64,000 bases of DNA from Lytechinus pictus (taxonomy: Eukaryota), in NCBI RefSeq assembly GCF_037042905.1, contig NC_087245.1, positions 28,832,001-28,896,000 on the forward strand, read 5' to 3'. Made by a program: the position numbers and the translations under genes. Shown here one piece after another: positions 35,601-64,000 of this stretch; the first letter of the stretch is position 1, and each line of letters opens with the position of its first letter. A model generated the notes under the pieces. It saw only the letters and a list, made by a program, of their open reading frames with translations, was not told the DNA's origin and ran no database searches.

Positions 35601-35719
35601 AAGTTGCACACCTTTATTCATTCTTAATTATGTTTGTGAACCTAAATGTCTATGACAGTATTAATTTTGGAATGTACCACTGGGATGAAGGTTGTAAACA
35701 GTCACCGAGTTCCTTTTCT

Positions 35720-35769
<50 letters not shown>

Positions 35770-38700: not shown

Positions 38701-40762
38701 AAATGACATAGTTTGTTTAATATCCGCCTGGGGTATATGATTTTGGTCTTTAACCCATGGTTTAAAGGGTCAAGTGATACATTAGGACAAGTTACAAGGA
38801 TATTCAGCGTTTCACCATGTTCAAAAATCCAAGATGGCTTCCAAAATGGAGTCTAAAATGGTTGTTGTTAACAAATATCTGGCATAGTTTGTTTGATATC
38901 CGCCTGGGATATATGATTATGTTGTCTAACCCTTGATTTAAAGGGTCAAGTTATACATGAGAATAAGTTATAAGGACAATCAATGGTCCTGTATGTCCAG
39001 AATTCCAAGATGGCTTCCAAAGGAGGAGTCAAAGATGACTGATTTTACTTACAAATTGACATAGTTCATTTATAATCCACCTAGTTGATATGATTTTGGT
39101 GTCTACATTATGATTTAAAGGGTTAAATAATAATTTTGTATCAGTTTCAATGGTATGAAGTAGTCCATTTTGCCTAAAACCTCAAAATGGCTTCCAAATG
39201 CGTCAAAAATGAGTCCTATCACATAGTAATGTGAAAAAAGATATTTGATGTCTACGCTATTGTGGTTTGAAGGATCAAATAATACATCTGGACAAATAAC
39301 AAGAATAGTCAGTTTACCTTTATGTCCAAAAAATCAGAAGTGACTTCTAAAATTACGTAAAAATTACTGCTGTTCCTGACTCATGAAACTTTAGGATAGT
39401 CCATAGTGACTCGTCTTGGAAGTATTTATCAGTGAATTATAGTACTTTTTAGGTGAAAGTGTACCCCATTATGTTTTATTTCGGGTTTTTACGTATTGTT
39501 GCACCACAGTCTAATTTTGTAACTTGTAACACTTGTTTTATGAGCCTTAAAAAATAACAGAGACATTAAAATAATGTCTCCACATGGGATAATAATGAAG
39601 TTGTGCCATTTTTGTATTAATGGTGGCCAACTTGAATGCAAATTTGCGAGCCTCCAATTTTTTGACAAAGTGGACAGCAGCGTATCCCTGTAATTAGTCC
39701 TAACCTATATCATTTGACACTTGAAATCATTGGAAAACACAAAAATGTCTCTGGTACACATTATAAGTATGCACGTTGCATCCAATTTTTAAGAAACAGC
39801 AACCATTTTTTAAGTCATCATGAATTTTTTGACAATCGGCACCACTGACAAACCTTGACAATTTTTCAATGTATAGTTTTTCACTTTGAACCATTATTTT
39901 TTTTGTTGGGGAGGGGTCTATTTGGTAGATTTAAATCATTTTGTCATATGAATTTTACACATTTCAAAATTACAACGTCCATTATATACGCCATTTTAGA
40001 AGGTCATTGGATTCTCTGACACACTCACTGCATGACAATCTTGTAAACATATTTCTTGTCTTGAAAACTTCTTGGATATAGGGTCATTCCATGCCAATTC
40101 ACCCAATGAATGTGCAATTTTGCACCCGACCCTCTCGGAATTCGTTGTAAATTGGTACACATAAAATTCACCATGGCCCACGCACAAAACAAAAAAAATA
40201 AGTCCAATTGGTCCGTCGGTTCTCGCGCTACGGCCCGCCCTTTTCTCCTTGTTTTGACAAAAATGGGCGTGACCTTCAACTTTCAATGGCCACTGCGTCG
40301 TAACGTGTTGATCAATTTTCATGAAACAGGTACCATTTATTAGGAAATTCAGAGAGGAATCCAAAACATGCATCAAATAATGTATTCGAGCGATTTATAA
40401 GGTCGTGACCTTTTACCTTTACTTTGACCTTGAGTTTGACCCCCGGACAAATAATTTTTTAACTTGATTTTCATGTATGTTAATTATTAGTATGATATTG
40501 ACAAAATATGTTAAAATCAATGATGATATTTTATTTCTTCACCTTTTAAAACTCTTCCAAAGATACCATGAAATTTCACTCTAGTCCCACATACTGATAT
40601 TCATGTTAGTAAAGTGTTTACCAGTTACATGATTTCTTCCAATCTTAAGTTACAGTATGCATGCACATGAAAAGAAATTAAGCTCATCAGTTCACAAATG
40701 AAACATTAAACATTTATGCTCATGAATAGGTATCTGTTTAGGCATTTTGATGTTGAGCAATA

Positions 40763-40831
<69 letters not shown>

Positions 40832-43800
40832 TTGTTAGTAAATAGGCATATACTCAACAATTTGATGATAAAAGTAAACACTTTACCATTAAACAAGAAT
40901 ATATATATATGATATATATTGCTGAACATCAAAATGCCTAAACAGATACCTATTCATGAGCATAAATATTTAATGTTTCACGCCCATTTTTGTCAAAACA
41001 AGGAGAAAAGGGCGGGCCGTAGCGCGAGAACCGACGGACCAATTGGACTTATTTTGTTTTGTTTTGTACGTGGGCAATGGTGAATTGTATGTGTACCAAA
41101 TTACGACGAATTCTGAGACGGTCGGGTGCAACAACTGGGTGAATCCAGATGGAATGACCCTATAAGCTAATTTTCTGAAGTAAGCAATAGATGATTTACT
41201 TTAAACGAATACAGTTCTGGACGCCATCTTGGATTTCCAGGTACCCTGGATGACGTTTTCTTTACACTATAACCTGTCTCAATAGATTTTGTTTAACCCA
41301 TAGTTTCATCAAATAGATACTTATACCCTATTAAGGAGTTTTGACATTTCAAAAACTTAACATCCGTTAAGATTTTATGTTGACTTCGCCGCCGCCAAAG
41401 TCATTGCTGCCGTCGGAAAAGCGACGTCCATGTCTTGCTTCTGTTATGCTGGTGAGGAAAAAACGGCGAATTTGTTAAAGTTATCACAATATGATTTTGC
41501 CAGCTTCGCCCCAAAATTATCAAATATTTGGCCATTTTATTTATTAATCAACAACCGTGAATCATGGCAGCCATCTTTGAATTAAAGATGGCTGACGAAT
41601 CAATCGGAAGTTTTATGTTTGCATCCCTGGGTATCAAAAATATAGCATAGACCATAATTTCTGAAACATAATCACCCATAGAAATGATTTAATAGGGGAA
41701 ACTGCATTCAAAATACCGCCAATTTGTTTTTGTTTTTTTTGCCGAGTTGTGGATGAAAACGTCGGAATCAAGTTTGGCAAACAGCATTTTTGGATTCAGC
41801 ACCCCTGAATTACCTCAAAACGATTGATAAATCAGCATTAACACAAAATGCCCAAAGAACTTTTTCTGAGCACATTTAAAAAATCTGGACCTGACTAGTG
41901 AAAGAGTTTTTAATAGACAGTCTACACAGTTTACGTATTTGATTGTCTAATATTGTATCCCTTTTTTATCATTTATCATGAGGTAACTGATGGTTGGCTT
42001 GGTGCCAAGTCGAAACAAAGACATTTGTGGGATGTGGCTGGGGTACCAAATAAAGACAGATGGAGGGACATGGGTGGTCTTTTCGAAAAGAAATCAGCTT
42101 ACCAGTCATGGGTAACATCCTCGTTGGTTGTTTCGTTAACCTCTCTTACTTTTGGTCACCAACCTCGTTTATCCCTCTCTCAATCGATAGATACGTGTGG
42201 TGTTCCATCAGCACTGAATGATAGCACTACCGGTGGTGCAGCCCGGATCGTTGGTGGGACTCTAGCACCAAACGGGAAGTGGCCGTGGATGGGTTCGCTT
42301 CGGAGCGGAAGATCACACCAGTGTGGCGCCGTCTTGATACATCAAGAATGGGCCATTACGGCTGCTCATTGTGTGTAAGTACCACAACATTCATAATTAT
42401 GTACCTTGTAAAAACTACTTCCGAGTAAAATCCAATACATGGTGTCTGCAATAGCTTATGGGGTGTTGCAAGACACTTGCAATCAATTGCAAGTCAATTT
42501 CTTCCGTCTGTAAATGACTATTAATTGCAAATTTACACTTGATTGCTGATATGCTTCTTGGAACAAGAAATGAAAAATAATATTGCTACAGTTGGTATGT
42601 CATTTATAAAGTAGCATTTGAAATTTCCAGTTTATTTCAAATATTTTCTTGCAACATCCATCTAGAGACAACAGGAGGAAGAATCACTCTGATGATAATT
42701 AGAGCAGCCTCCTGGAAGTTGGTCTCTGTTGGAAATGTTACTGCGGCAGTTGGCAAAATGATTCAAAATCCTGATGCCAATCATGGCACAAGGGTTAATC
42801 TTTCGGTATAATAGGATTAATAAAGTAAATTTATATTAGACAACTCTGAACTAATTACTGTCTAAAATGCAATTGGAAAACGTTTAAAATGAGCTAACCC
42901 CAAATCTCCCTAGGAGCTTCGAAAGTCGAGGAGTGGCCTTTCGTTGAATTCAGTGAAACAAAGTGGAGAAAAATGTTCCAAGTCCGAACTGAGGTTTGCA
43001 TCGAAGACGCATCTAGGAAGTTATTCCTAAGCGGATTGCTATAACGTATAAATTTGAAATCATGATTCCTTCCATAAGAGATATTTGTCTATCATGTTCA
43101 TTCGAAAACAGAGGATTCTTTGATAACATCGTTCTTGGGGACAACGATCTCGCTGGCACCACAGACACCTCGCCATACCGGGTTGAGCGCAACATCCAAC
43201 ATTTTTCAAATCTAGACTTCAACCCCGTAAACGATGACGGTGACATTGCCCTAGTCCGCCTTACGGAACCCGTGGAGTTCAACGATTACATCCAACCTCT
43301 CTGCATCAATACGTTGACGACGGAAATGACGTCATTCAATAACTGCTTCGTCAGCGGATGGGGCACTGATGATATCGATGTTCGTAAGTTTCAAGCGGGT
43401 CACTGGCTACAATTTCATTCAAGTCTTAATGTGTAAAAAAGAACCTTGATACTCATTGCAATAGCGATTTATGGCTGCATTTCTCGAGACATACAAGCAA
43501 AAAAGCAAACTAACTGATCATGTTATGACATCATCTTAAGACGGAATTTTTTTTGTGATTCATAATTATGTACACCTGCTAGTTTCCATTTCTTCCAATT
43601 TTTTTTTTGTCCCTTACCGGTATCTTGATCCAATCGACTTTGAAAGATGATTATGTCTACCATAATTGTTCATATCCACAATTGATTATCTTTCAGAAGC
43701 ATCAATGAGATATCTAATGGACGCCAATATTCAGATGTTTAACAGGAGTATTTGTAGCGAGTGGTACACTGATATTCACGCCATAACTAATCACCATATA

Positions 43801-45233
43801 TGTGCAGGGGAAGAAAACGGTCGTAGGGACTCTTGTTCGGTAAGGGGCATTTAATTTGACTTCTTAAATAAAGGTTTCAAGTGATGTCACTTATTAGTGA
43901 TAAAGATGAGATGGTGATTTAGATCCTCGTAATTTTAAATTGCATTTAAAGTTCCTGCCATCATGAGGGGTTTTACAACGGAATGTGAAAAGGCCAGTGT
44001 TGTTTCCGAGGCCAAGGCCGGATCACCCGAGGACAAGGCCAAGGCTGGATTTCCCGAGCCAAGGACAAGGCCAAGGCCGACCCATCCGAGGACAAGGCCA
44101 AGGCCGGAATGGTGGAGGCCAGAGCGATACCGAACATTTTTTTTTACAGTATATGCATGTGCACGTGCACAATGATTGCAAAGTCGAGTCTTCGCCACGT
44201 CATTGTCAGTGCAGCATATGCATGCTAGCATTTGCGCGGCATGAATTGGCTTGAAATCAAAATAGAAAGACAAAAGAAAGTAAGATAGAAGGGTGTACTC
44301 ATACAGGTGGATGGGCGTACTCGACAGTTGACTCCCCTCTCTCTCTCTTAGTTTCAATAATATTAGAGAGAAACTGACAACATTCGGCATTTGCACACAA
44401 TTCTCCCGTCCTCGAGGACGAGGCCAAGGACGATTTAGCGGACTCGAGGCCCAGGCCGGCCTCGAGACCCACAACACTGGAAAAGGCAGATGCATTGCAA
44501 GGACAAAAGTTTCCAGACAAATTTCTGGTACTATACTGATTATGTTTCTTGCTATATCATGAGCTTCATAACATAGCAATATTTCCTTTCTTCTCTCTCT
44601 CTCCCCATCCACCTATTTCTCAAGAGATTCATATTTAACAGGAAGACATGTAAAACTTACATGTATACTGTTTTATTTAAAATCAAATTTGTACGATGAA
44701 AAAGTGTGAATTTGGCCATACTCCTAAATACTATGGGAAAAAAATCCCACCGAGGCAATGCATTCAATTCCAACAAAAAGTTTTTTTTTGTTATTCATCG
44801 TGTTCATGTTGCATATCAAAACACAATCATATAAAGTTACATTCCACTTAGGGCCTAGAGTATTGTTGTTCTTTGCCTACATTTGCAATTATACTCCGCT
44901 ATCTTCAAATAACCATTTAAGGATATCGAAAACTTAGAAAGCGATCCGAAGGTACAGATTTTAAGGAATGGTGACATTGCTAGAATGACCTTAATAATTA
45001 TCATGATTTGACAATAACAAAAAAAAACGTGTTTCCTTATTTTTTCTTTTTACTCCCAGGGTGACAGCGGTGGCCCCCTTCAATGCCAGGATGACCAGGG
45101 AATATGGTACCTATTGGGTGTGGTCAGCTTTGGTCAGGGTTGTGGTGAGGAAAAACTGCCCGGTGTCTATACCAGGATATCTACGCAAATATCATTCCTT
45201 CAGGGCATATTAGACACAAATTTAAAATCATGA
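26649..45233 (+). CDS. Gene C: type II transmembrane serine protease (TM - SEA - Ser/Thr mucin-like stalk - trypsin-like S1 protease), 782 aa
   Basis: Exons 26649-26654, 27492-27801, 32305-32337, 34239-34348, 35271-35338, 35945-36114, 36765-37643, 42191-42374, 43112-43383, 43697-43839, 45060-45233 total 2349 nt, phase-consistent and open to [31 protein letters not shown] with [11 protein letters not shown]; activation site R-IVGG; triad motifs TAAHC, GDIAL, GDSGGP; S1 Asp in RDSCSGDS. A probable non-coding exon ends at 25734. Confidence 0.92.
28016..30179. mobile_element. hAT-type non-autonomous element hosting nested insertions
   Basis: Ends CAGAGTTG...CAACCCTG with a perfect 8-bp TSD GACACACA (28008-28015, 30180-30187). 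Confidence 0.75.
28279..29098. mobile_element. Tc1/mariner-type fold-back MITE, 820 bp
   Basis: TA-CAGTGCGTCCCAGAAAAAACG...CGTTTTTTCTGGGACGCACTG-TA. Arms of about 345 bp are nearly perfectly complementary around a spacer of about 125 bp. Confidence 0.9.
30975..31900 (+). mobile_element. 5'-truncated, degenerate CR1/L2-clade LINE (ORF2 C-terminus plus 3' UTR)
   Basis: Translates [18 protein letters not shown]...[40 protein letters not shown]...[13 protein letters not shown]...FKSKLK with a stop and frameshifts; ends in an (AATA)n/(GAAAT)n tail. Confidence 0.8.
32732..33335. mobile_element. Kolobok-like MITE (TTAA TSD, AGG...CCT ends)
   Basis: TTAA-AGGACAAGTCCACCCC...GGGGTGGACTTGACCT-TTAA with long imperfect inverted arms. 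Second copy at 47929-48514; degraded relatives near 1860-2340, 23690-24190 and 49320-49880. Confidence 0.8.
36238..36540 (+). mobile_element. tRNA-derived SINE, family 1
   Basis: GGTTCGAATCCC B box and CCCAGGTGAGGTTAATGGG core, followed by an (ATT/ATC)n tail. Confidence 0.7.
37870..41897. mobile_element. Non-autonomous DNA transposon of about 4 kb with internal tandem repeats (Academ-like ends, tentative)
   Basis: Terminal AGTCAGGTCCAG.TTT / AAATCTGGACCTGACT, imperfect subterminal inverted homology, and ~160-180-bp repeats carrying AATCCAAGATGGC..CCAAAAT (about 38300-39400). Confidence 0.65.
40081..41160. mobile_element. Fold-back MITE nested in the 4-kb element
   Basis: TATA-GGGTCATTCCAT...ATGGAATGACCC-TATA, outer arms of about 190 bp, and an inner hairpin at 40699-40980 around (TA)n. 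Confidence 0.85.
43995..44479. mobile_element. hAT-type MITE in the last intron of gene C
   Basis: CAGTGTTG...CAACACTG with a perfect 8-bp TSD GAAAAGGC (43987-43994, 44480-44487) and subterminal AGGCCA-type repeats. Confidence 0.88.
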
Positions 45234-48514: not shown

Positions 48515-50539
48515 TTAAGGCAACGCGCGGGACCCAGTTAAAGGAAACCAAAAGCAAGGAAGAAAATCAATCTGACATTAGGGAGTAAAATGAGAGGAAT
48601 AATAAGAAAGTTTCATCAAATCCATTTTAAAGTAAGAGAGTTCTGGAAATTTAAATTGTCTTGTACTTTCTATGGGATCCTCAAATTTGCAAATGACTGA
48701 TTTTGTGAAGAACTCTCGTTCCCCATTATCTTTTAAATTGCATCTTGCCTCGTTCTGAGGACAATATTACGTCATGGGAAAATATAATCCACACCACGTT
48801 ATGTCTAGGTCAGGAGGAGGTAATGCGAAATATGTGAAATGAAGGAGAAAATCTGAAAATTTATGAACAAAACAAATGGAGGGTTGTCCATAAATCAGCC
48901 ATTTGCTAATTTGAGGATCCCAATAGAAAGTACAACAAGACTTATTAAACTTCCATAATTCCCTCGACTGATTTTAATGAAACTATTTTTATATTGTTCC
49001 TCACATTTTCGGCTCATTTTACTCTTTCCGATAAGAATGGTTCTCTCTTCTTGGGCTTTGGTTTCCTAAAAGGACTGGGCTGTTTGTGATGTATTGAGGA
49101 CTTGGGGGGGCGGGGGGGCGTTCGTGCGATTGCGCCGAAATTTGGCAAGCACATTTTTACCACATAAACTACAAGCCAGTATATAAACAAATATCCGAAA
49201 TAAGTATTTCGTATCTATTATAAATAAAATATGCAAATTAAATAATAAAAACATTATTTGCATATTTAACACCCAATTTCACTTCAAATTTTCATTTTTT
49301 TCCGGATGTCATTTTTATAATCTTATCTTGAAGGATTGGACAAAGCAAAATGCTGAAAATTTCATCTAAATCTGACAACAAATGACAGAGTAATTGAGTT
49401 TTGAAATTAAGCAATATTTCGTGAAAACAGTTATATGCACGCCGCATGAATATTCATGAGGTGGGCCGATGATGTCACATCCCCACTTTTCTTTTTCTTA
49501 TGTTACTTCATGAAGTCATAATTATTCGATTTTTCATACATGTGTGAATGATATGTCTCACCTATAATAAGCTAAGTTGCAGTAATGAATAGCTAATTCA
49601 TTAAATCAGTTGTCAATCGATTATTTTTTTTAGAAAAAAAATTGAATAAACCTAATTTTATGTAATCAAATACAAAGAAAAGGTGGGGATATGACGTCAA
49701 TCATTTTGCTCATTGAATATTCATGAAGAGATTCAAAGTTTAAACCGTTTCACCGCAATAATGCATTTTTTAAAAGAATATCACAACTTGTTATTCCTTG
49801 TCCGAAATTGATTAAACTTTTGGTGTTTTATTTTTTCTTTATATGTTCGAAAGATACCTTTTCCAGCCTGGAGTACCCTTTTAAGCGATTTAATATCGCC
49901 ATATTACTGACTTTGAGAACAACTAAGATGAATTAAAGAATAACAACACACAATTCATTTGATAATAGAATACTAAAGTTCATTGAACTTAAATGACCTC
50001 TGGGTATTTTTTTTTTTTTTTTTTTTTTTTTTGGGGGGGGGGGGGGTCGATGATCTGTGATCAATACTGGATTACCCTAATATGTCCAAGCATCATGAAA
50101 TAGATCCATGTATTAAAAGTTATGATGACGTTTCTAAAATCAAAAAAGTGAATGAATGTCAACAATTAATTGAAAAAAGGCACTGCTTGTAAGAATATTG
50201 TAATAGTATTAATAATTTACAAAATAAATTGGTATGAATATTAAAAGAGTAATATGAATTTATTTATCATTATTATATATTGGGCATGCATTTTGAGACT
50301 ACTATCTGACTATGATCAAATTGTTGCAAAATGGGTAAATGGGAATGCATACGGATTGGGGATTCCCCGTTTGTGTTCATGAACTTTGCTTTGTGATATA
50401 TCCTTGGAGATCTCACGTGCAATCGATCCATATTAAAATAAACTGTTTAATGTCAGACGCTACATTCACGATTCGTGTTTTCACCGATATTATTCGATGA
50501 ACAGAACCGAATGTGAATATTAGCAGAATTGTTACCAAA

Positions 50540-50617
50540 ATGGCAGATTTGATGTTAACTTCTCTCCACATTTATCTACAGTACTACTGATGTTGTATAC
50601 CCTAGCAACATGTTAAT
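50540..50617 (+). pseudogene. Disabled copy 1 of the gene D signal-peptide exon
   Basis: A 1-nt deletion (CTACAG vs CTACCAG) gives an early TGA, and AAA has become TAA. The GTAAGT donor is retained. Confidence 0.75.
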
Positions 50618-52434
50618 GTAAGTTCGCTGGCTTGTTGGTTGGTAAAACAAACATGAATGTGAATGAATGTGTTTGTGTTATGTGTGCGCCTTTGTACTTT
50701 TCGGTTTGGTATTCTTAGCAATATCTGAATCTTGAAAATTATGATTTTATTAACCCCATTTGTCAATAATACTCATTGTGTTGATAATGATGAAGATGAT
50801 GATAACGATGATGCCGGTGATGATGATGATGATTTCGAGGATGATGATATTGGCGATTATGACGGTGATGGTGATGATGATGAAAATTAAAACCCACGTA
50901 ATTCAGATAGTGATGGGTATTATACTCGACTGGTCGTTTCTCAGCCATCGAATAGGACCAACGGCTTTCAATCATCTCCGAGATATCGCTATGAGCGTGC
51001 ATTCATGCCTTACGAGGCCGAGGGAGTTATTTTATATGAAACTCACCGTGCCGATGGAATGCAATATCTCTATTTATTAACTTAGCACATAATACATGTA
51101 ATATGATAATTAAACGATATGATCACAATATTGAAAAAAAAAACAATAAAACTAGTTATTACGATGAATGGTGAAGATATTAATGATGATGGTGATGATG
51201 ACGTCGACGATGATGATGATGGTGCTGACGATGATGATGATTATAATGATAATGCCGGTTTTGGAAATAATCGAATTAGCGAAATAATCATTAACAAAAA
51301 TATTCATTGCCATTTCAAACACAAAATTATATGAAAAATAAACTTTTAATAATGATCAGCAGGCCCGTAGCCAGGAATTTTCAGAGGACGGTGCATAAGT
51401 CAAGAAAATGTTTTTTAATACAGTTTGGTAAATAAATAGTTCACATTATATTTCATCAGTGTAGTAAGGAGTGTTTCACAGCTAGACCTAAAAACGGTGA
51501 CATTTTATGCATTTTTTGTAGTAATGAACAGCAACAGGGCGGTCATCTTTCTAAATGAATAATGCAAGCGCAAAGTGTGGGCCGAAACTTTTTGGTTATT
51601 CGATTTTTCAATCTGAAACTGCAAAATTTTAAGCACTTTTGTAATTATAAACAAGATCATAAAGATCATTTCTAACTTAAACAACTATGCGAACGCAAAG
51701 CGCGAGCTTATTTTTTTATTTTACGAACTGGACACTCTATGCACTTTGTGTAACCATAAACAAGATTGGTATATACCTACAGAGTAATGCGAGTGCAAAG
51801 CGGATATTTAGTCACAAGCTTAATTCAGGATGGTTCTAGAATTATGTCTAGAATAATTTATATACTAAAGTTCCCAATTAATCCTAATTTTCTCTAGCTT
51901 TAAGCACCTGTATGTCGGCGTGTCTACAGCCGGGTAATGATAATACACCGCCCTATCACACGGTGAAAAAAATTGTAATTGAATGATGGTTCCAGTGATA
52001 AAATGAGTCAAATGACGTATTTTAGTACGTGTAAAACCAAACTAGAACATGATTCGAATCACGCCCGCCTGCAATCATCATTACAATGATGATTCAAGAT
52101 ACGCGTGTAAAAAGGCCGACAATCAAGTACCAAGCGTATTATAGTGTATGCAATTATAGTTGCTGCGCTATATAAATGGACAAAATTATTTTTTTCTGCA
52201 ATTCTAGATGGCATCCAAAATGCCCGCAATTTCCTGAATTCCTCATAACCCTAGAACCAGATCCTTGGACTACCAGATTCGAGTGTCTAAACCTAAGTTT
52301 TTGAAGATAAGGAACCAAATAGAACACTTTTTCAGAGACACTGAGTGCGAAACATGCAATTACAAATAAAAAATCAGCTGAACTCTTAAAAACAAGATGG
52401 TGTCTTAAGTGACCACTAATTATTCTAAATTTTT

Positions 52435-53340
52435 CAGGGGCGGATTCACGATGTTCTGAAAGGGGGGGGGGGCGGGGCAGATTTTCCCGAGGAAAATTTG
52501 ACAAGCAAAAAAAAAATTTCCTCACTTGTGTTTGAGCGACATTTTCCAATTACAAATTTATGAGTTACAGCGGCACTCGAAAGCTCGTGAACTTGAAAGC
52601 TAGTGAACACTTTTTGCGAGAGTGATCACGAATTTCCTTGTTGCCCATAGTAGATTGCGAGACAAATGAATACCCTCTAGCGATTATTTCAGTCCGCAAT
52701 AATGAACCTATTTAGTATGTAACGTCTTCATGGTTAACTGCAAGCAGTAGGTAGGCCTACCTTTTCGATCAGTTCAAAACGTGTATCAACAATTTCTGCT
52801 CTCGCTTTGCGTTCGTATTATAAATAGTTGCATACACATCTTTTTCAGGATAACAAAAATTGCCTAGAATGTCAAAATTTAAGGAATAAATGCATAGAAT
52901 TTCAAAGAAAAATTGCTTGCGCTTCGCGCTCGCATCATATAAATATGGATTATGATATATATTTATAATGATTTATAAGAATAAAGCGAAGAAGTAACTA
53001 TTACGACTACCCCTTCAAAGAAAAAAATCATGTTCGAGCGGCCGATCGGGGAAAATATGGCTGATTTTTTTTTTCAGGATAACAAACATTGGCAGAATGT
53101 CCAAATGTTAGGGGGGAAAAAAATTAAAAAAAAATTGGCACGCTTCACGCTCGCATTATATATATAAGGATTATGAAGTATATTTATGTTGATTTATAAG
53201 AATAAAGCGAAGAAGTAACTATTACGACTACTCCTTCAAAGAAAAAAAAATCATGTTCGAGCGGCCGATCTATGAAAATATGGCTGAAAAAAAATTCCGC
53301 CGCCCCCCCCCCCTATTTGCGAAGGCAGGATCCGCCCCTG
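52435..53340. mobile_element. hAT-type MITE (CAGGGGCGGAT...ATCCGCCCCTG), repeated in each array unit
   Basis: 11-bp terminal inverted repeats and an internal ~225-bp tandem duplication. Copies at 54192-55059, 55911-56779, 57631-58503 and 61156-62400. No TSD. Confidence 0.8.
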
Positions 53341-53603
53341 ATTATCATATATTGAGCATGCATTTTGAGACTACTATGTAACTATGATCAAACTGTTGCA
53401 ACATGGGTAAATTATGGTAATGCATACGGTGTTGGGATTCCTCGTTATTGTTCATGAATTTTGCCTTGTGATATATCTTTGACGTGCAGTCCATGTTGAA
53501 ATATACCGTTTAAATGTCAGACGCCATATTTATGAGCCGTGTAATCAATGATATTATTCGATGAACAGAACCGAATATGAATATCAGCAGAATTAGTACC
53601 AAA

Positions 53604-53682
53604 ATGGCGGATTTGATGTTAACTTCTCTCCATATTTATCTACCAGTACTACTGATGTTGTGTAACCTAGCAACGTGTAAAT
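53604..53682 (+). CDS. Duplicated signal-peptide first exon, copy 2
   Basis: MADLMLTSLHIYLPVLLMLCNLATCK plus a phase-1 GTAAGT donor. Confidence 0.45.
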
Positions 53683-55322
53683 GTAAGTTCGCTGGCTTGT
53701 TGCCTGGCAAAACAAACATGAATGTGAATGAATGTGTTTGTGTTATGTGTGCGCCTATTTACTTTTCGGTTAGGTGTTCTTATCAATATCTGAATCTTGA
53801 AAATTGTGATTAATTAACCCCATTTGTCAATAATACTCATTATGTTGATAATGGTGATGGTGATGACGATGATGATGATGCCAAGCGTATAATAGTATAT
53901 GCAATTATAGTTGCTGCGCTATATAAATGGACAAAATTATTTTTTCTGCAATTCTAGACGGCATCCAAAATGCCCGCAATTTCCTGAATTCCTCATAACC
54001 CTAGAACCAGATCCTCGGACTACGAAATTCGAATGTCTAAACCTAAGTTTTTGAAGATAAGGAACCAAATAGAACACTTTTTTCAGACACTCTGATTGCG
54101 AAACATGCAATAACAAATATAAATCAGCTGAACTCTTAAAAACAAGATGGCGTCTTAAGTGAACACTAATTATTCTAAATTTCTCGTGTCTCAGGGGCGG
54201 ATTTACGATGTTCGAAAGGGGGGGGGGGGCGGGGCAGATTTTCCCGAGGAAAATTTGACAAGCAAAAAAAAAATGTCCTCACTTGTGTTTGAGCGACATT
54301 TTCCAATTAAAAATTTATGAGTTGCAGCGGCACTCGAAAGCTCGTGAACTTGAAAGCTAGTGAACACTTTTTGCGAGAGTGATCACGAATTTCCTTGTTG
54401 ACCATAGTAGGTTGCGAGACAAATAATGAACCTATTTAGTATGTAACGTCTTCATGGTTAACTGCAAGCAGTAGGTAGGCCTACCTTTTCGATCAGTTCA
54501 AAACGTGTATCAAAAATTTCTGCTCTCGCTTTGCATTCGTAGTATAGTTGCATACACATCTTTTTCAGGATAACAAACATTGCCGAGAATGTCCAAATTT
54601 AAGGAAAAAATACATATAATTTCAAAGAAAAATTGCTTGCGCTTCGCGCTCACATTATATAAATATGGATTATGATATATATTTATATTGATTTATAAGA
54701 ATAAAGCGAAGAAGTAACTATTACGACTACCCCTTCAAAGAAAAAAATCATGTTCGAGCGGCCGATCGGGGAAAATATGGCTGAATTTTTTTTTCAAGAT
54801 AACAAACATTGGCAGAATGTCCAAATGTTAGGGGGGAAAAAAATTAAAAAAAAATTGGCACGCTTCACGCTCGCATTATATATATAAGGATTATGAAGTA
54901 TATTTATGTTGATTTATAAGAATAAAGCGAAGAAGTAACTATTACGACTACTCCTTCAAAGAAAAAAAAATCATGTTCGAGCGGCCGATCTATGAAAATA
55001 TGGCTGAAAAAAAATTCCGCCGCCCCCCCCCCTATTTGCGAAGGCAGGATCCGCCCCTGATTATCATATATTGAGCATGCATTTTGAGACTACTATGTAA
55101 CTATGATCAAACTGTTGCAACATGGGTAAATTATGGTAATGCATACGGTGTTGGGATTCCCCGTTATTGTTCATGAATTTTGCCTTGTGATATATCTTTG
55201 ACGTGCAGTCCATGTTGAAATATACCGTTTAAATGTCAGACGCCATATTTATGATTCGTGTTATCACTGATATTATTCGATGAACAGAACCGAATGTGAA
55301 TATCAGCAGAATTAGTACCAAA

Positions 55323-55401
55323 ATGGCGGATTTGATGTTAACTTCTCTCCATATTTATCTACCAGTACTACTGATGTTGTGTAACCTAGCAACGTGTAAA
55401 T
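55323..55401 (+). CDS. Duplicated signal-peptide first exon, copy 3
   Basis: Same peptide and donor as copy 2. Confidence 0.45.
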
Positions 55402-57042
55402 GTAAGTTCGCTGGCTTGTTGCCTGGCAAAACAAACATGAATGTGAATGAATGTGTTTGTGTTATGTGTGCGCCTATCTACTTTTCGGTTAGGTGTTCTT
55501 ATCAATATCTGAATCTTGAAAATTGTGATTAATTAACCCCATTTATCAATAATACTCATTATGTTGATAATGGTGATGGTGATGACGATGATGATGATGC
55601 CAAGCGTATAATAGTATATGCAATTATAGTTGCTGCGCTATATAAATGGACAAAATTATTTTTTCTACAATTCTAGATGGCATCCAAAATGCCCGCAATT
55701 TCCTGAATTCCTCATAACCCTAGAACCAGATCCTCGGACTACCTAATTCGAGTGTCTAAACCTAAATTTTTTAAGATAAGGAACCAAATAGAACACTTTT
55801 TTCAGAGACTCTGATTGCGAAACATGCAATAACAAATATAAATCAGCTGAACTCTTAAAAACAAGATGGCGTCTTAAGTGACCACTAATTATTCTAAATT
55901 TCTCGTGTCTCAGGGGCGGATTTACGATGTTCGAAAGGGGGGGGGGGCGGGGCAGATTTTCCCGAGGAAAATTTGACAAGCAAAAAAAAAATGTCCTCAC
56001 TTGTGTTTGAGCGACATTTTCCAATTACAAATTTATGAGTTGCAGCGGCACTCGAAAGCTCGTGAACTTGAAAGCTAGTGAACACTTTTTGTGAGAGTGA
56101 TCACGAATTTCCTTGTTGACCATAGTAGGTTGCGAGACAAATAATGAACCTATTTAGTATGTTACGTCTTCATGGTTAACTGCAAGCAGTAGGTAGGCCT
56201 ACCTTTTCGATCAGTTCAAAACGTGTATCAAAAATTTCTGCTCTCGCTTCGCGTTCGTAAGATAGTTGCATACACATCTTTTTCAGGATAACAAACATTG
56301 CCTAGAATGTTCAAATTTAAGGAAAAAATACATAGAATTTCAAAGAAAAATTGCTTGCGCTTCGCGCTCACATTATATAAATATGGATTATGATATATAT
56401 TTATATTGATTTATAAGAATAAAGCGAAGAAGTAACTATTACGACTACCCCTTCAAAGAAAAAAATCATGTTTGAGCGGCCGATCGGGGAAAATATGGCT
56501 GAATTTTTTTTTTTTCAGGATAACAAACATTGGCAGAATGTCCAAATGTTAGGGGAAAAAAAAAAAAAAAAAAATTGGCACGCTTCGCGCTCGCATTATA
56601 TATATAAGGATTATGAAGTATATTTATGTTGATTTATAAGAATAAAGCGAAGAAGTAACTATTACGACTACTCCTTCAAAGAAAAAAAATCATGTTCGAG
56701 CGGCCGATCTATGAAAATATGGCTGAAAAAAAATTCCGCCGCCCCCCCCCCCTATTTGCGAAGGCAGGATCCGCCCCTGATTATCATATATTGAGCATGC
56801 ATTTTGAGACTACTATGTAACTATGATCAAACTGTTGCAACATGGGTAAATTATGGTAATGCATACGGTGTTGGGATTCCCCGTTATTGTTCATGAATTT
56901 TGCCTTGTGATATATCTTTGACGTGCAGTCCATGTTGAAATATACCGTTTAAATGTGAGACGCCATATTTATGATTCGTGTAATCAGTGATATTATTCGA
57001 TGAACAGAACCGAATGTGAATATCAGCAGAATTAGTCCCAAA

Positions 57043-57121
57043 ATGGCGGATTTGATGTTAACTTCTCTCCATATTTATCTACCAGTACTACTGATGTTGT
57101 GTAACCTAGCAACGTGTAAAT
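57043..57121 (+). CDS. Duplicated signal-peptide first exon, copy 4
   Basis: Same peptide and donor as copy 2. Confidence 0.45.
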
Positions 57122-58766
57122 GTAAGTTCGCTGGCTTGTTGCCCGGCAAAACAAACATGAATGTGAATGAATGTGTTTGTGTTATGTGTGCGCCTATTTA
57201 CTTTTCGGTTAGGTGTTCTTATCAATATCTGAATCTTGAAAATTGTGATTAATTAACCCCATTTGTCAATAATACTCATTATGTTGATAAAGGTGATGGT
57301 GATGACGATGATGATGATGCGAAGCGTATTATAGTATATGCAATTATAGTTGCTGCGCTATATAAATGGACAAAATTATTTTTTCTGCAATTCTAGATGG
57401 CATCCAAAATGCCCGCAATTTCCTGAATTCCTCATAACCCTAGAACCAGATCCTCGGACTACCAAATTCGAGTGTCTAAACCTAAGTTTTTGAAGATAAG
57501 GAACCAAATAGAACACTTTTTTCAGAGACTCTGATTGCGAAACATGCAATAACAAATGTAAATCAGCTAAACTCTTAAAAACAAGATGGCGTCTTAAGTG
57601 ACCACTAATTATTCTAAATTTCTCGTGTCTCAGGGGCGGATTTACGATGTTCGAAAGGGGGGGGGGGGCGGGGCAGATTTTCCCGAGGAAAATTTGACAA
57701 GCAAAAAAAAAATGTCCTCACTTGTGTTTGAGCGACATTTTCCAATTACAAATTTATGAGTTGCAGTGGCACTCGAAAGCTCGTGAACTTGAAAGCTAGT
57801 GAACACTTTTTGCGAGAGTGATCACGAATTTTTTCTTGTTGACCATAGTAGATTGCGAGACAAATAATGAACCTATTTAGTATGTTACGTCTTCATGGTT
57901 AGCTGCAAGCAGTAGGTAGGCCTACCTTTTCGATCAGTTCAAAACGTGTATCAAAAATTTCTGCTCTCGCTTTGCGTTCGTAGTATAGTTGCATACACAT
58001 CTTTTTCAGGATAACAAACATTGCCTAGAATGTCCAAATTTAAGGAAAAAATACATAGAATTTCAAAGAAAAATTGCTTGCGCTTCGCGCTCGAATCATA
58101 TAAATATGGATTATGATATATATTTATGCTGATTTATAAGAATAAAGCGAAGAAGTAACTATTACGACTACCCCTTCAAAGAAACAAATCATGTTCGAGT
58201 GGCCGATCGGGGAAAATATGGCTGAAATTTTTTTTTCAGGATAACAAACATTGGCAGAATGTCCAAATGTTAGGAAAAAAAAAATCAAAAAAAGTTTGGC
58301 GCGCTTCGCGCTCGCATTATATAAATAAGGATTATGAAGTATACTTATGTTGATTTATAAGAATAAAGCAAAGAAGTAACTATTACGACTACTCCTTCAA
58401 AGAAAAAAAAATCATGTTCGAGCGGCCGATCTATGAAAATATGGCTGAAAAAAATTCCGCCGCCCCCCCCCCCCCCTATTGGCGAAGGCAGGATCCGCCC
58501 CTGATTATCATATATTGAGCATGCATTTTGAGACTACTATGTAACTATGATCAAACTGTTGCAACATGGGTAAATTATGGTAATGTATACGGTGTTGGGA
58601 TTCCCCGTTATTGTTCATGAATTTTGCCTTGTGATATATCTTTGACGTGCAGTCCTTGTTGAAAGATACCGTTTAAATGTCAGACGCCATATTTATAATT
58701 CGTGTAATCACTGATATTATTTGATGAACAGAACCGAATGTGAATATCAGCAGAATTAGTACCAAA

Positions 58767-58845
58767 ATGGCGGATTTGATGTTAACTTTTCTCCATATTT
58801 ATCTACCAGTACTACTGATGTTGTGTACCCTAGCAACGTGTAAAT
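58767..58845 (+). CDS. Duplicated signal-peptide first exon, copy 5
   Basis: MADLMLTFLHIYLPVLLMLCTLATCK plus GTAAGT donor. Confidence 0.45.
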
Positions 58846-59716
58846 GTAAGTTCGCTGGCTTGTTGCCCGGCAAAACAAACATGAATGTGAATGAATGTGT
58901 TTGTGTTATGTGTGCGCCTATTTACTTTTCGGTTAGGTGTTCTTATCAATATCTGAATCTTGAAAATTGTGATTAATTAACCCCTTTTGTCAATAATACT
59001 CATTATATTGATAATGGTGATGGCGATGATGATGATTTCGAGGATGATGATTTTGGCGATGATGACAGTGATGGTGATGAAAATTAAAACCCATGTAATT
59101 CAGCGGACAGCGGACCAACGCCTTTCAATCATCTCCGAGGTATATCATAGCGTTATGAGCGTGCATGTCTTCCGAGGCCGAGGAAATTATTATTTTATCT
59201 GAAACCCACCGTGCCGATGGATTGCAATATCTCTATTTATTAACTTAGCTATCGCACATAATACATGTAATATGATAATTAAACGATATGATCACAATAT
59301 TGAAAAAAAACAATAAAACTAGTTATTACGATGAATGGTGAAGATATTAATGATGATGGTGATGATGACGTCGACGATGATGATGATGGTGCTGACGATG
59401 ATGATGATTATAATGATAATGCCGGTTTTGGAAATAATCGAATTAGCGAAATAATCATTAACAAAAATATTCATTGCCATTTCAAACACAAAATTATATG
59501 AAAAATAAACTTTTAATAATGATCAGCAGGCCCGTAGCCAGGAATTTTCAGAGGACGGTGCATAAGTCAAGAAAATGTTTTTTAATACAGTTTGGTAAAT
59601 AAATAGTTCACATTATATTTCATCAGTGTAGTATAAGGAGTGTTTCACAGCTAGACCTAAAAACAGTGACATTCTATGCATTTTTTGTAGTAATGAACAG
59701 CAACAGGGTGGTCATC

Positions 59717-60251
59717 CCCGGGGGGGGGGGCACTCGACCAAAAAAGTGGTAGGGATGTGCCGCGGGCGAGGCAAAAAACGGGGGCCTTGGAGCGGGCTTA
59801 TTGTAAAAAGGAGGGTCCTCGGAACGGGCTTCGGAACTACAAATGTTTGTGATAACTGGGGTCCTCGGAACGGATCTCCGTATCTCTGTGAGTGCGTATG
59901 CATCCCTATGGAACGGGCAATCGTGCATGACGCAGCTAGCGCGACCTCCGCCGGGTGCGCTCGCGCTAAGGCGATGGTCGAAAAGCGCTCTACGGCCGCT
60001 TTTCACCAAAATTGTAGCAGATCAATGCGACCGGAACGGCGTAACGAAAAATATGCGAAGCTTTGGAGCTGATTTCTTTCTTCTTTTTTTCTCAATAAGA
60101 AGGAAATGCTATGCCTTGGAGCGGCTTTCTTTGTTCTTTTTCTCAATAAGACAAAAATGCTATGCCTTGGAACGGAAATTTGAGTGTAAAAATGGGGGTC
60201 CCCTCCGCGGCACATACCCACTATGCATTATATACTGAGTGCCCCCCCGGG
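59717..60251. mobile_element. 535-bp non-autonomous DNA transposon, recent insertion
   Basis: Ends CCCGGG(G)nCACTC / GAGTG(C)nGGG with 8-bp TSD TGGTCATC (59709-59716, 60252-60259). The paralogous unit has the empty site near 51540. A degraded relative lies near 7700-8026. Confidence 0.92.
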
Positions 60252-61493
60252 TGGTCATCTTTCTAAATGAATAATGCAAGCGCAAAGGGTGGGCTGAAAC
60301 TTTTTGGTTATTCGATTTTTCAATATGAAACTGCAAAATTTTAAGCACTTTTGTAATAATAAACAAGATCATAAAGATCATTTCTACTTAAACAATTATG
60401 CGAACGCAAAGCGCGAGCTTATTTTTTTATTTTATGAACTTGACACTCTATGCACTTTGTGTAACCATAAACAAGATTGGTATATACCTACAGAGTAATG
60501 CGAGTGCAAAGCGGATATTTAGTCACAAGCTTAATTCAGGATGGTTCTAGAATTATGTCTAGAATAATTTATATACTAAAGTTCCCAATTAATCCTAATT
60601 TTATCTAGCTTTAAGCACCTGTATGTCGGCGTGTCTACAGCCGGGTAATGATAATACACCGCCCTATCACACGGTGAAAAAATTGTAATTGAATGATGGT
60701 TCCAGTGATAAAATGAGCCAAAATGACGTATTTTAGTACGTGTAAAACCAAGCTAGAACATGATTCGAATCACGACCGCCTGCAATCATCATTACAATGA
60801 TGATTCAAGATTCGCGTGTAAAAAGGCTGACAATCAAGTACCAATCGTATTATAGTATATGCAATTATAGTTGCTGCGCTATATAAATGGACAAAATTAT
60901 TTTTTCTGCAATTCTAGATGGCATCCGAAATGCCCGCAATTTCCTGAATTCCTCATAACCCTAGAACAAAATCCTCGGACTACCAAATTTGATCGAGTGT
61001 CTAAACCTAAGTTTTTGAAGATAAGGAACCAAATAGAACACTTTTTTCAGAGACTCTGATTGCGAAACATGCAATTACAAATGAAAATCAGCTGAACTCT
61101 TAAAAACAAGATGGGGTCTTAAGTGACCACTAATTATTATAAATGTCTTGTGTCTCAGGGGCGGATTCACGATGTTCGAAGGGGGGGGGGGCGGGGCAGA
61201 ATTTCCCGAGGAAAATTTGACAAGCAAAAAAAAATGTCCTCACTTGTGTTTGAGCGACATTTTCCAATTGCAAATTTATGAGTTGCAGCGGCACTCGAAA
61301 GCTCGTGAACTTGTAAGCTAGTGAACACTTTTTGCGAGAGTGATCACGAATTTCCTTGTTGACCATAGTAGATTGCGAGACAGATGAATACCCTCTAGCG
61401 ATTATTTCAGTCCGCAATAATGATCCTATTTAGTATGTAACGTCTTCATGGTTAACTGCAAGCAGTAGGTAGGCCTACCTTTTCGATCAGTTC

Positions 61494-61839
61494 CTTTTTT
61501 TTTCATTTAGGTTTTATTTCCACAAATCCGTTATGTTACAAAACTTTGATAACTTAACTGACATAAGTAAGCTGAGCAACCATTACACACGTAGACTATA
61601 TATTATTAAATGTAGATAGCAAGCATTCTTAATCACTACATATTAATACATGTTTAAGTACATAAAAAAACGGAAAAGCGGAGGAAACCTTAGAAGCAGA
61701 ATGCTTGTAGATAAGGTTCCCTTTTTTATACATTACATTTGACATTACTACTTAGTAATAATACACGTGACAACATTTTATCAATTAAATTACACCCCCA
61801 AAAACAACACAACACAGAAACGTGACAAAAAACAAAGAA
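61494..61839 (-). mobile_element. Short 5'-truncated retroelement tail (LINE 3' UTR-like), recent insertion
   Basis: Absent from the other four MITE copies and flanked by an AGTTC duplication. Has a T-run and TTTATT at the left end and a stem-loop AACCTTA..AAGC..GCTT..TAAGGTT. Confidence 0.7.
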
Positions 61840-62660
61840 AGTTCAAACGTGTATCAAAAATTTCTGCTCTCGCTTTGCGTTCGTAGTATAGTTGCATACA
61901 CATCTTTGTCAGGATAAACAAAAATTGCCTAGAATGTCAAAATTTAAGGAAAAAATACATACAATTTCAAAGAAAAATTGCTTGCGCTTCTCGCTCGCAT
62001 TATATAAATATGGATTATGATATATATTTATGTTGATTTATAAGAATAAAGCGAAGAAGTAACTATTACGACTACCCCTTCAAAGAAAAAAATCATGTTC
62101 GAGCGGCCGATCGGGGAAAATATGACTGAATTTTTTTTTCAGGATAACAAACATTGGCAGAATGTCCAAATGTTAGGAAAAATAAAAAATAAAAAATAAA
62201 TTGGCGCGCTTCGCGCTCGCATTATATATATAAGGATTATGAAGTATATTTATGATGATTTATAAGAATAAAGCGAAGAAGTAACTATTACGACTACTCC
62301 TTCAAAGAAAAAAAATCATGTTCGAGCGGCCGATCTATGAAAATATGGCTGAAAAAAAATTCCGCCCCCCCCCTATTGGCGAAGGCTGGATCCGCCCCTG
62401 ATTATCATATATTGAGCATGCATTTTGAGACTACTATGTAACTATGATCAAACTGTTGCAACATGGGTAGATGGTAATGCATACGGTGTTGGGATTTCCC
62501 GTTATTGTTCATGAATTTTGCTTTGTGATATATCTTTGACGTGCAGTCCTTGTTGAAAGATACCGTTTAAATGTCAGACGCCATATTTATAATTCGTGTA
62601 ATCACTGATATTATTTGATGAACAGAACCGAATGTGAATATCAGCAGAATTAGTACCAAA

Positions 62661-62937
62661 ATGGCGGATTTGATGTTAACTTCTCTCCATATTTATCTAC
62701 CAGTACTACTGATGTTGTGTACCCTAGCAACGTGTAAATGTAAGTTCGCTGGCTCGTTGGCTGGCAAAACAAACATGAATGTGAATTATGAACGTATTTG
62801 TGTAATTTGTGCACATAAGTATTTAACGGTTTGGTATTCCTAGCAGTAAATGAATCTTGAAAAATTGTATTTTTATTAACCCCATTTATCAAAAAGCTAA
62901 ATGTTTTCTTCTTTTTCTTCTTTATCAGATCTTATAG
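62661..62937 (+). CDS. Gene D 5' end (partial): signal-peptide exon 62661-62739 plus candidate 9-nt microexon 62929-62937; secreted or type I membrane protein continuing beyond the window
   Basis: AAAATGGCGG start context, hydrophobic MADLMLTSLHIYLPVLLMLCTLATCK, GTAAGT donor, then a long polypyrimidine tract and CAG-ATCTTATAG-GTAGTA (phase 1-1, encoding Y-L-I). Confidence 0.6.
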
Positions 62938-63067
62938 GTAGTATAATAAATAATATCTTTTGTATTGATGATGGTGATGAAAATAGTGATGATGACAATG
63001 ACGACGACGACGATGATGATGAAAATGGTGATGGTGGTGGCGGTGATGATAATGATAATGCTGACGA

Positions 63068-63247
63068 CAGTGGCGTACCTAGGATTTTCCACAGGGGGGG
63101 CAAAACCGTCCGCCCAAAAATTTGACAAGCAAGGTCTTCGATCATAAATAAAGGATTTCGTTCCAGAAAAAAATTGACAAGCAAAAAAAAAAAAAAAAAA
63201 AAAAATCGATCATAAATAAAGGATTTCGTTCCAGAAAAAAATTGACA

Positions 63248-63284
<37 letters not shown>

Positions 63285-63329
63285 TCTTCGATCATAAATA
63301 AAGGATTTCGTTCCAGAAAAAAATTGACA

Positions 63330-63364
<35 letters not shown>

Positions 63365-63502
63365 TCTTCAAGCTCGTCAAGGGGGGCAAAAAAGGTTTTT
63401 CAAGTCCGTCAGGGGGGGGCAAAGATACGTTTTTGCATGGGTTGTGACTCGTCAGGGGGGGCAGAGTGCCCCCCCTGCCCCCCCCCCGTAGGTACGCTAG
63501 TG
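63068..63502. mobile_element. hAT-type MITE with internal poly-A-linked tandem repeats
   Basis: CAGTGGCGTACCTA...TAGGTACGCTAGTG with a perfect 8-bp TSD GCTGACGA (63060-63067, 63503-63510), inserted in a (GAT/GAC)n microsatellite. Confidence 0.88.
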
Positions 63503-64000
63503 GCTGACGATGGTGATGATGATGGTGGTGGTGATGACGACGACGACGATGATGATGGTGGTGGGGATGATGATAATGATTTGTTGATGAGGGTGGTGAT
63601 GATGATAGAGATGATGATGGTGACGATGGTGAAAAGTAAAAAAAAAAACTTTAAAAGTAAAAAGAAAAAAAAAAACCTAATTCAGATATTGGTGGGTATT
63701 ATACCCGACTGGTCACAGCCACCAGCTGAACGGCTTTCAATCATCTCCGAGGCATCGGTATATGTGTAACTTCATGCGTTACGCATCCCAAACCCACCGT
63801 GCCCATGGAGTGTAAGATATCAACTTAGCTATCTCGCATCCTATAATCATAACCACGATATAATAACATCATTAGTTATAGTCAAAACATCAGCTGCATT
63901 GAAAATAATTATTATAATAATGAGTGATAAAGAATTAAAGATAATAATGATAGAGAAAACGATGATGATGATGATGATGATGATGATAACGACGATACTG

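Follow-up and report, generated by a model that had tools for sequence, protein, structure and literature searches.

Tandem first exons placed before one set of shared exons have been described in several gene systems, of which the closest precedent is hydra (CG1338) of Drosophila melanogaster, where the layout reported here is already known. According to Chen et al. 2007 (PMC1904467), hydra has nine young first-exon copies, or heads, with a nine-codon coding sequence, for which unequal crossing-over was proposed as the main mechanism; 5′ RACE showed the use of at least 4 of the 9 heads, and length variation in head number was found between lines. The same text describes a de novo testis gene, in which most copies are flanked by a co-duplicated transposon and the first copy is probably dead, and reports that the many-headed species expresses it ~20-fold less than a sister species with fewer heads (PMC1904467). 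In the protocadherin (Pcdh) alpha and gamma clusters, the variable exon codes for a signal peptide, six ectodomains, a transmembrane (TM) segment and a variable tail, and promoters are chosen stochastically in a CTCF-based manner (PMC7811963). The variable exon of UGT1 encodes a signal peptide and a substrate-binding domain, and these exons are described as old and diverged, with positive selection acting on some of their sites (PMC1885805). In the UGT1A and GCNT2 clusters, too, first exons stand in tandem and each of them carries a signal peptide, pseudo-exons and relics included (PMC1885805 and PMC9013439). Here we describe an array of six first-exon modules in a 64,000-nucleotide (nt) stretch of the genome of the sea urchin Lytechinus pictus (NC_087245.1; the whole stretch is referred to as the window, and all coordinates are window positions). 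The array lies at ~50269-62739 on the + strand, upstream of LOC129265391, a gene predicted to encode an immunoglobulin (Ig) receptor with an IFI44-like GTPase domain.

Layout and origin of the array

A reading made from the sequence alone (here the sequence-only reading) had proposed that upstream DNA, an ATG, a 26-codon leader and a GTAAGT donor are repeated six times. The positions of the modules (Table 1) and a self-BLAST, in which module pairs gave E values of 0.0 to 3e-153, far above chance, bore this out. The exon of copies 2–6 is 79 nt long (26 codons plus one base, phase 1) and intact, with S or F at leader residue 8 (F in copy 5 only) and N or T at residue 21 (N in copies 2–4), whereas the exon of copy 1 has 78 nt owing to a 1-nt deletion and its old frame also has a stop at codon 26; five intact copies and a frameshifted first one had likewise been proposed. 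From ATG to ATG, the spacing along the array is 3064, 1719, 1720, 1724 and 3894 nt. The repeat of ~270 bp given earlier holds insofar as ~270 nt upstream of the ATG can be aligned across all six modules (copy 1 versus the others 84.5–86.8% identical, copies 2–6 among themselves 95.5–98.5%; the exon of copy 1 is 92–94% identical to those of the other copies). The true repeat unit is, however, far larger, being 1.72 kb for copies 2–5, with spacers of ~3.1 and ~3.9 kb after copies 1 and 5, respectively, and the 1.2 kb upstream of copies 2–6 is 95.7–97.7% identical.

As proposed earlier, the units hold no other coding exon: tblastn with six family proteins and a family profile run in six frames detected no further exon of the gene family in the window, and the profile matched only the six leaders. 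Relics of Ig, TM or GTPase exons were likewise not found in the units by these searches, so that tandem whole-gene duplicates were ruled out.

Identification of the downstream gene, which the sequence-only reading had suggested as a check, came from proteins in NCBI that share the leader. A 40-residue query around copy 6 matched 4 proteins among 5 candidates, all from L. pictus; three of them are models of LOC129265391 and the fourth is a model of LOC129265380. The LOC129265391 proteins begin with exactly the leader of copy 6, and their isoforms read ...TCK-C-EV... after the leader, which is the phase-1 join expected from the donor. The same join is present in the LOC129265380-type paralogue and in the Lytechinus variegatus orthologue. 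The prediction of a real signal-peptide first exon with a donor used in phase 1 thus held. The gene body lies beyond 64000; on the other hand, the earlier claim of one gene body is uncertain, as the annotation places nearby a close paralogue that has a near-identical leader of its own.

The origin of the array can be read from sites at which copies 1 and 6 differ. Upstream, copies 2, 3, 4 and 5 match copy 6 at 35, 34, 35 and 39 of 41 such sites, and in the exon they match it at 5/5. From +111 to +270, in contrast, they agree with copy 1 at 27, 26, 27 and 26 of 30 sites, with the switch from copy-6-like to copy-1-like sequence falling between +104 and +123 from the ATG, i.e. 25–44 nt into the intron. 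Judged by these sites, copies 2–5 are chimeras, with copy-6-like upstream DNA and exon and copy-1-like intron beyond, and the array consists of one old copy (copy 1), one live copy (copy 6) and four chimeras rather than of six equivalent duplicates. Copy 1 is 84.5% identical to copy 6 upstream and ~80% in the intron, and by sequence comparison it is older than the other copies; it may be what is left of a deleted paralogue, or it may have arisen by partial duplication. In spacer S, which follows copy 1, the blocks 50618-50769 and 50882-51014 are 74–83% like the intron after copy 6.

The four 1.72-kb units show three copies of one novel junction, at which an intronic GAT repeat is joined to 52132, the unit start. 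Site patterns among the four units (5 aabb, 4 abba and 0 abab) are incompatible with one tree, hence the units exchanged sequence. A 33-nt deletion is common to 3 of the 5 distal spacers. A terminal inverted repeat (TIR) element stands directly upstream of copies 2–6, and pieces of it are high-copy in three sequencing runs of one study (X1–X3, described below). Spacer S′, the duplicate of S, carries two private insertions with target-site duplications, of which the second is presumably the 3′ end of a minus-strand retroelement. Two long open reading frames (ORFs) near 59632-60238, located in the first of these insertions, had no Pfam match.

The sequence shows that copy 1, an old and dead 5′ relic, at first stood upstream of copy 6, the start of the live gene, with a single spacer between them. 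In the origin that we propose, unequal crossing-over between the two, resolved 25–44 nt inside the intron, would then have duplicated the spacer and left a chimeric head with live upstream DNA and exon and old intron. A 1.72-kb tandem duplication carrying this head would have given the four units, among which sequence would later have been exchanged. The site patterns and the junctions are those described above, and we consider it very probable that the array arose in this way, through recombination within a cluster of immune-type genes that is unstable. One point counts against this scheme in its simplest form: a single crossover is too simple, because identity between S and S′ is uneven, being ~91% over the first 500 nt, 100% over the next 250 nt and 95–98% thereafter. 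The 250-nt identical tract (approximately 51118-51367 versus 59285-59535) is likely a recent conversion tract.

Alternatively, the assembly could have joined the haplotypes of a heterozygous animal in tandem, so that the true number of heads is lower. The units diverge by 2–4%, which is within the range of allelic divergence in sea urchins, and yet four distinct 1.72-kb units, three novel junctions, a shared 33-nt deletion and two private insertions with target-site duplications are impossible from two haplotypes alone. We therefore regard an inflated array as very unlikely.

Use and retention of the extra heads

Copies 2–5 could fire, given that their upstream DNA (~1.2 kb plus the 270 nt) is 96–98% identical to that of the live copy. 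Based on this shared context, some of them may start transcripts at a low or variable level, which would be spliced to the same exon 2 and, after cleavage of the leader, would give the same protein of IgV domain, TM segment and IFI44-like GTPase. Some productive use of copies 2–5 seems to us reasonably probable. Taken as a whole, a hydra-type first-exon array that arose by recombination, is tolerated and has some of its extra heads in use is the interpretation towards which we lean, if only slightly.

Expression was examined in contigs from runs X1–X3, which were taken to be RNA by guess, X1 being possibly DNA. X2 and X3 have no cover at 62448-62960 and thus give no evidence either way, and the cover of X1 starts at 62488. 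In a 234-nt contig of X1, the bases at 62522 (C), 62550 (A) and 62559 (T) are those of copies 2–4, and the contig stops just before the N/T site 62722. A second X1 contig, unspliced and of copy-6 type, has the copy-6-specific site 62755 as its 31st letter. The ends of the two contigs, at 62722 and 62755, fall exactly on copy-diagnostic sites; if contigs of this kind are built from 31-letter words, such ends mean that both letters occur in the run. The X1 contigs thus hint at letters other than those of copy 6 in a probable RNA run.

Several observations weigh against use of the extra heads. The 234-nt X1 contig fits no single copy: it differs from copy 6 at only 4 sites, whereas copy 3 would show 7 differences from copy 6 and copy 5 shows 3 other ones. 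It may represent another copy-6 allele or a graph mosaic, or it may be DNA. Copy 1 also has the letters found at 62550 and 62559, which are therefore ancestral and may belong to a different allele of copy 6. No splice junction was found among the contig rows listed for runs X1–X3. All 4 database proteins with the leader have S8/T21, and none has N21 or F8. Each spacer contains 2–5 acceptor-like sites and 2–9 sense-strand AATAAA hexamers, which could divert upstream transcripts. Acceptor-like sites occur about once per kb across the window, and joining the leader to the T-rich ones at 53078, 56519 or 62143 leads to an immediate stop.

In a rival reading, the array would have the same origin but only copy 6 would give productive mRNA, the upstream heads being methylated or their transcripts ended at cryptic acceptors or poly(A) sites and degraded. 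In favour of it, the annotated proteins all carry a copy-6-type leader, cryptic signals are present in every spacer with immediate stops after the three joins above, and the exons show no conservation signal. However, the upstream context of copies 2–5 is the same as that of copy 6, and annotation pipelines drop multi-mapping reads in near-identical exons, here 97–100% identical. The contig ends at 62722 and 62755 also suggest other letters in X1, and such heads are often used in hydra (PMC1904467). We thus consider silence of all the extra heads possible but rather doubtful.

The sequence-only reading had suggested that promoters may have been multiplied for dosage or new expression, and if the extra heads raised or re-tuned the expression of an immune receptor and were kept for it, the locus would be an early variable-first-exon locus. 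This would agree with the intactness of 5 of the 6 heads, with a gene that looks immune-related and with an NF-kB-like 10-mer at −170 (62491..62500; also 50358-50368, 55153, 56873 and 58597), a putative site by what we take to be the NF-kB consensus, which is kept in 5 of the 6 heads including old copy 1 and is broken in copy 2. Nevertheless, we judge selected multiplication to be unlikely. The exons are no better conserved than their flanks, as 2/79 exon sites are variable among copies 2–5 versus 92/1619 over the remainder of the unit (p 0.32), and 2/79 among copies 2–6 versus 16/267 upstream (p 0.38), although a test on 79 nt has little power, which also weakens our own interpretation. Both exon changes alter the amino acid. 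Under neutrality at the unit-wide rate, the chance of zero disabling substitutions is ~0.63 at the age of the array, and four intact extra leaders therefore need no selection. The six kB-like matches are not independent across heads, diversity of the mature protein is impossible, and in hydra, for which interference was proposed, more heads go with ~20-fold lower expression (PMC1904467). Most likely, the array is tolerated and not selected.

A stronger version would have the array act as a copy-number-variable, NF-kB-responsive promoter amplifier, in which several heads would be switched on by immune challenge, differences in receptor dose between individuals would follow from how many heads there are and from the condition of each kB-like site, and heads would perhaps serve both paralogous gene bodies; we hold this to be quite improbable. 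The array would gain in importance if the dose of an immune receptor depended on the number of heads. Single-nucleotide differences 17 and 56 nt from the donor (N21 in copies 2–4 and F8 in copy 5) allow short reads to assign spliced transcripts to heads, and this makes the array, in an urchin amenable to genetic work, convenient for asking if additional promoters act additively or get in each other's way.

The downstream gene and other features of the window

By its sequence, LOC129265391 encodes a type I membrane protein with a signal peptide, an IgV domain, a TM segment and an IFI44-like P-loop GTPase domain. In the 421-residue isoform, the IgV domain matches Pfam V-set with E 1.6e-9, a hydrophobic helix lies at ~150-175 and the P-loop domain is present (the model of this isoform has a mean predicted local distance difference test, pLDDT, of 82.7), and a 380-residue isoform has no membrane exon; skipping of the TM exon would place the GTPase domain in the secretory lumen. 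The P-loop domain is assigned by similarity and by the motifs GxxGxGKST at 211-219 (G1), DNRG at 263-266 (G3) and THAD at 341-344 (G4-like) in the alignment, with GTP binding as a prediction. Across 227 residues it shares 26% identity (E 9e-14) with a protein of Branchiostoma belcheri that bears the name IFI44-like. A fold search returned human GIMAP2 (E 3.1e-7) at rank 25, the higher ranks being Ig domains of CD166, JAML and nectins, and a sequence search of solved structures gave Ig matches only. In the model, the IgV domain resembles nectin, JAML and CD226 folds. Together with the GIMAP2-like and IFI44-like GTPase, this makes the gene look immune-related.

The L. variegatus orthologue LOC121420984 (XP_041471486.1) has 527 residues, is 87% identical and contains an extra IgC domain. 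A 164-residue L. pictus piece named IFI44-like is 91% identical. This piece and LOC129265380 seem to be two parts of one gene model that was split, that of a second L. pictus paralogue, 90% identical, with its own near-identical leader, and the adjacent accession and locus numbers suggest that LOC129265391 and LOC129265380 are neighbours. LOC129265391 is the derived paralogue, as it is without the IgC domain present in both the orthologue and the paralogue and has a 9-residue duplication in IgV. Just before its G2 position there is an altered arginine-rich stretch; the Thr at the G2 position is conserved in most relatives and is Ser in both Lytechinus species.

A family survey gave 95 matches with E up to 0.001, of which 20 were named and 27 Pfam-scanned (LOC129265391 is labelled P0004 and its relatives P0005, P0006, P0008-P0010, P0015, P0016, P0021, P0034, P0045 and P0099). 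Ig domains and the GTPase region occur together in 10 of the 27 scanned matches, from L. pictus, L. variegatus, S. purpuratus, Diadema antillarum, D. setosum and one Logan record. The family architecture is a signal peptide, IgV, IgC, a TM segment and a cytoplasmic IFI44/GIMAP-like P-loop GTPase, and the family is multi-member in sea urchins. No description of the family or of the array locus was found in the literature searched, with supplements and subscription journals outside its scope, and the family seems to be undescribed. An Ig ectodomain wired directly to a cytoplasmic IFI44-like GTPase is a receptor class of separate interest, and the family may be a better lead than the array.

Some further details concern the leader and the first intron. 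In copy 2 only, a G-to-A change at 53577-53579 (−27) gives rise to a further ATG, which is in frame and precedes the leader by nine codons, and S. purpuratus and one other relative have an in-frame Met four codons upstream of it. Four short ORFs occur in the 173 nt before the leader ATG, which makes an extended 5′ untranslated region doubtful. In the intron of copy 6 only, 62929-62937 (9 nt) follows a strong acceptor-like site (13/14 pyrimidines) and precedes a weak GT, and is a candidate for a frame-preserving micro-exon. It is absent from the two current isoforms, and four post-leader residues of the older model XP_054759368.1 can be read from almost the same bases.

Elsewhere in the window, unrelated to the array, there is a gene for a type II membrane serine protease of the trypsin family. 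Its exons comprise one for the TM segment, small ones that we read as SEA-like, a Ser/Thr-rich one of 1 kb and four that encode the trypsin domain. The SEA-like assignment had no Pfam match for the one piece tested. An intron of this gene contains what appears to be a large TIR element. Pro-rich exons ending in a hydrophobic segment, and an EGF exon with a 200-codon ORF without Pfam match, lie further upstream (Table 1).

Table 1. Coordinates of the array, its repeats and other features, in window positions
Feature	Position	Strand	ATG	First intron base	Remarks
Copy 1, old upstream module and dead leader exon	50269..50617	+	50540	50618	
Spacer S, relic of old intron 1 and repeats	50618..53340	+			duplicated after copy 5
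Four head-to-tail 1.72-kb units	52130-53880, 53881-55599, 55600-57321, 57322-59036	+			96.1-98.1% identical
Copy 2, upstream module and intact leader exon	53341..53682	+	53604	53683	N21; chimera by site pattern; kB-like site broken
Copy 3, upstream module and intact leader exon	55060..55401	+	55323	55402	N21; chimera by site pattern
Copy 4, upstream module and intact leader exon	56780..57121	+	57043	57122	N21; chimera by site pattern
Copy 5, upstream module and intact leader exon	58504..58845	+	58767	58846	F8; chimera by site pattern
Spacer S′, duplicate of S with two private insertions	58846..62400	+			
Copy 6, upstream module and leader exon	62401..62739	+	62661	62740	
Intron 1 of live gene, running past window end	62740..64000	+			TIR element at 63068-63502; exon 2 (IgV) beyond 64000
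TIR element directly upstream of copies 2-6	52435..53340, 54192-55059, 55911-56779, 57631-58503, 61156-62400	.			absent before copy 1
Private insertion 1 in S′	59706..60248	.			TIR-bounded; 9-11-nt target-site duplication
Private insertion 2 in S′	61494..61843	.			350 nt; starts with T-run; short target-site duplication
Serine protease gene	27400-45233	+			
Putative large TIR element in protease gene intron	40077-41164				197-nt inverted repeat (88%) around long (AT)n tract
Pro-rich exons	4530-6922	+			
EGF exon and 200-codon ORF	11283-13038	-			

Comparison with known first-exon arrays

The sequence-only reading had suggested that the array could be a very young version of the Pcdh or UGT1 layout. 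As in Pcdh and UGT1A, homologous first exons do stand in tandem here, and every one of them has an upstream region of its own and a same-phase donor. The array resembles Pcdh in its tandem units of promoter and first exon upstream of shared exons, and UGT1A and GCNT2 in its tandem signal-peptide first exons, a pseudo-exon included. On the other hand, the shared donor phase, which had been offered as support, is a trivial result of duplication. The exon product has 26 residues, is modelled as an N-terminal hydrophobic helix before IgV and is presumably cleaved. Pcdh differs from the urchin array in that the latter repeats only a cleaved leader, and UGT1 in that the urchin exon is young, not diverged and without a domain of the substrate-binding type. 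The feature that defines Pcdh and UGT1, a variable exon encoding a domain of the mature protein and thus isoform diversity, is absent: as the variable exon encodes only the cleaved signal peptide, there is no mature-protein diversity. The array can change the amount of protein made, and not which mature protein is made. As for the protein itself, the P-loop domain is shared with IFI44/IFI44L-like proteins, and in LOC129265391 it makes up the cytoplasmic portion of an IgV-bearing type I membrane protein.

The likeness to hydra is much closer. Both have young near-identical tandem copies of upstream DNA and a short coding exon 1 before one gene body. In the urchin the TIR element before copies 2–6 was duplicated with the exon, and the chimera pattern is the signature of unequal crossing-over; the first copy is dead in the urchin array and probably so in hydra. 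Unlike hydra, the urchin array has six heads that each encode a complete signal peptide, belongs to a receptor family that is old and shows a chimera breakpoint that can be mapped, whereas hydra has heads proven by 5′ RACE and length variation between lines, the urchin array being known from the sequence of one assembly. The array is a clean example of a hydra-type head array from a second phylum, the birth of which is legible in a crossover interval of ~20 nt and one tandem junction.

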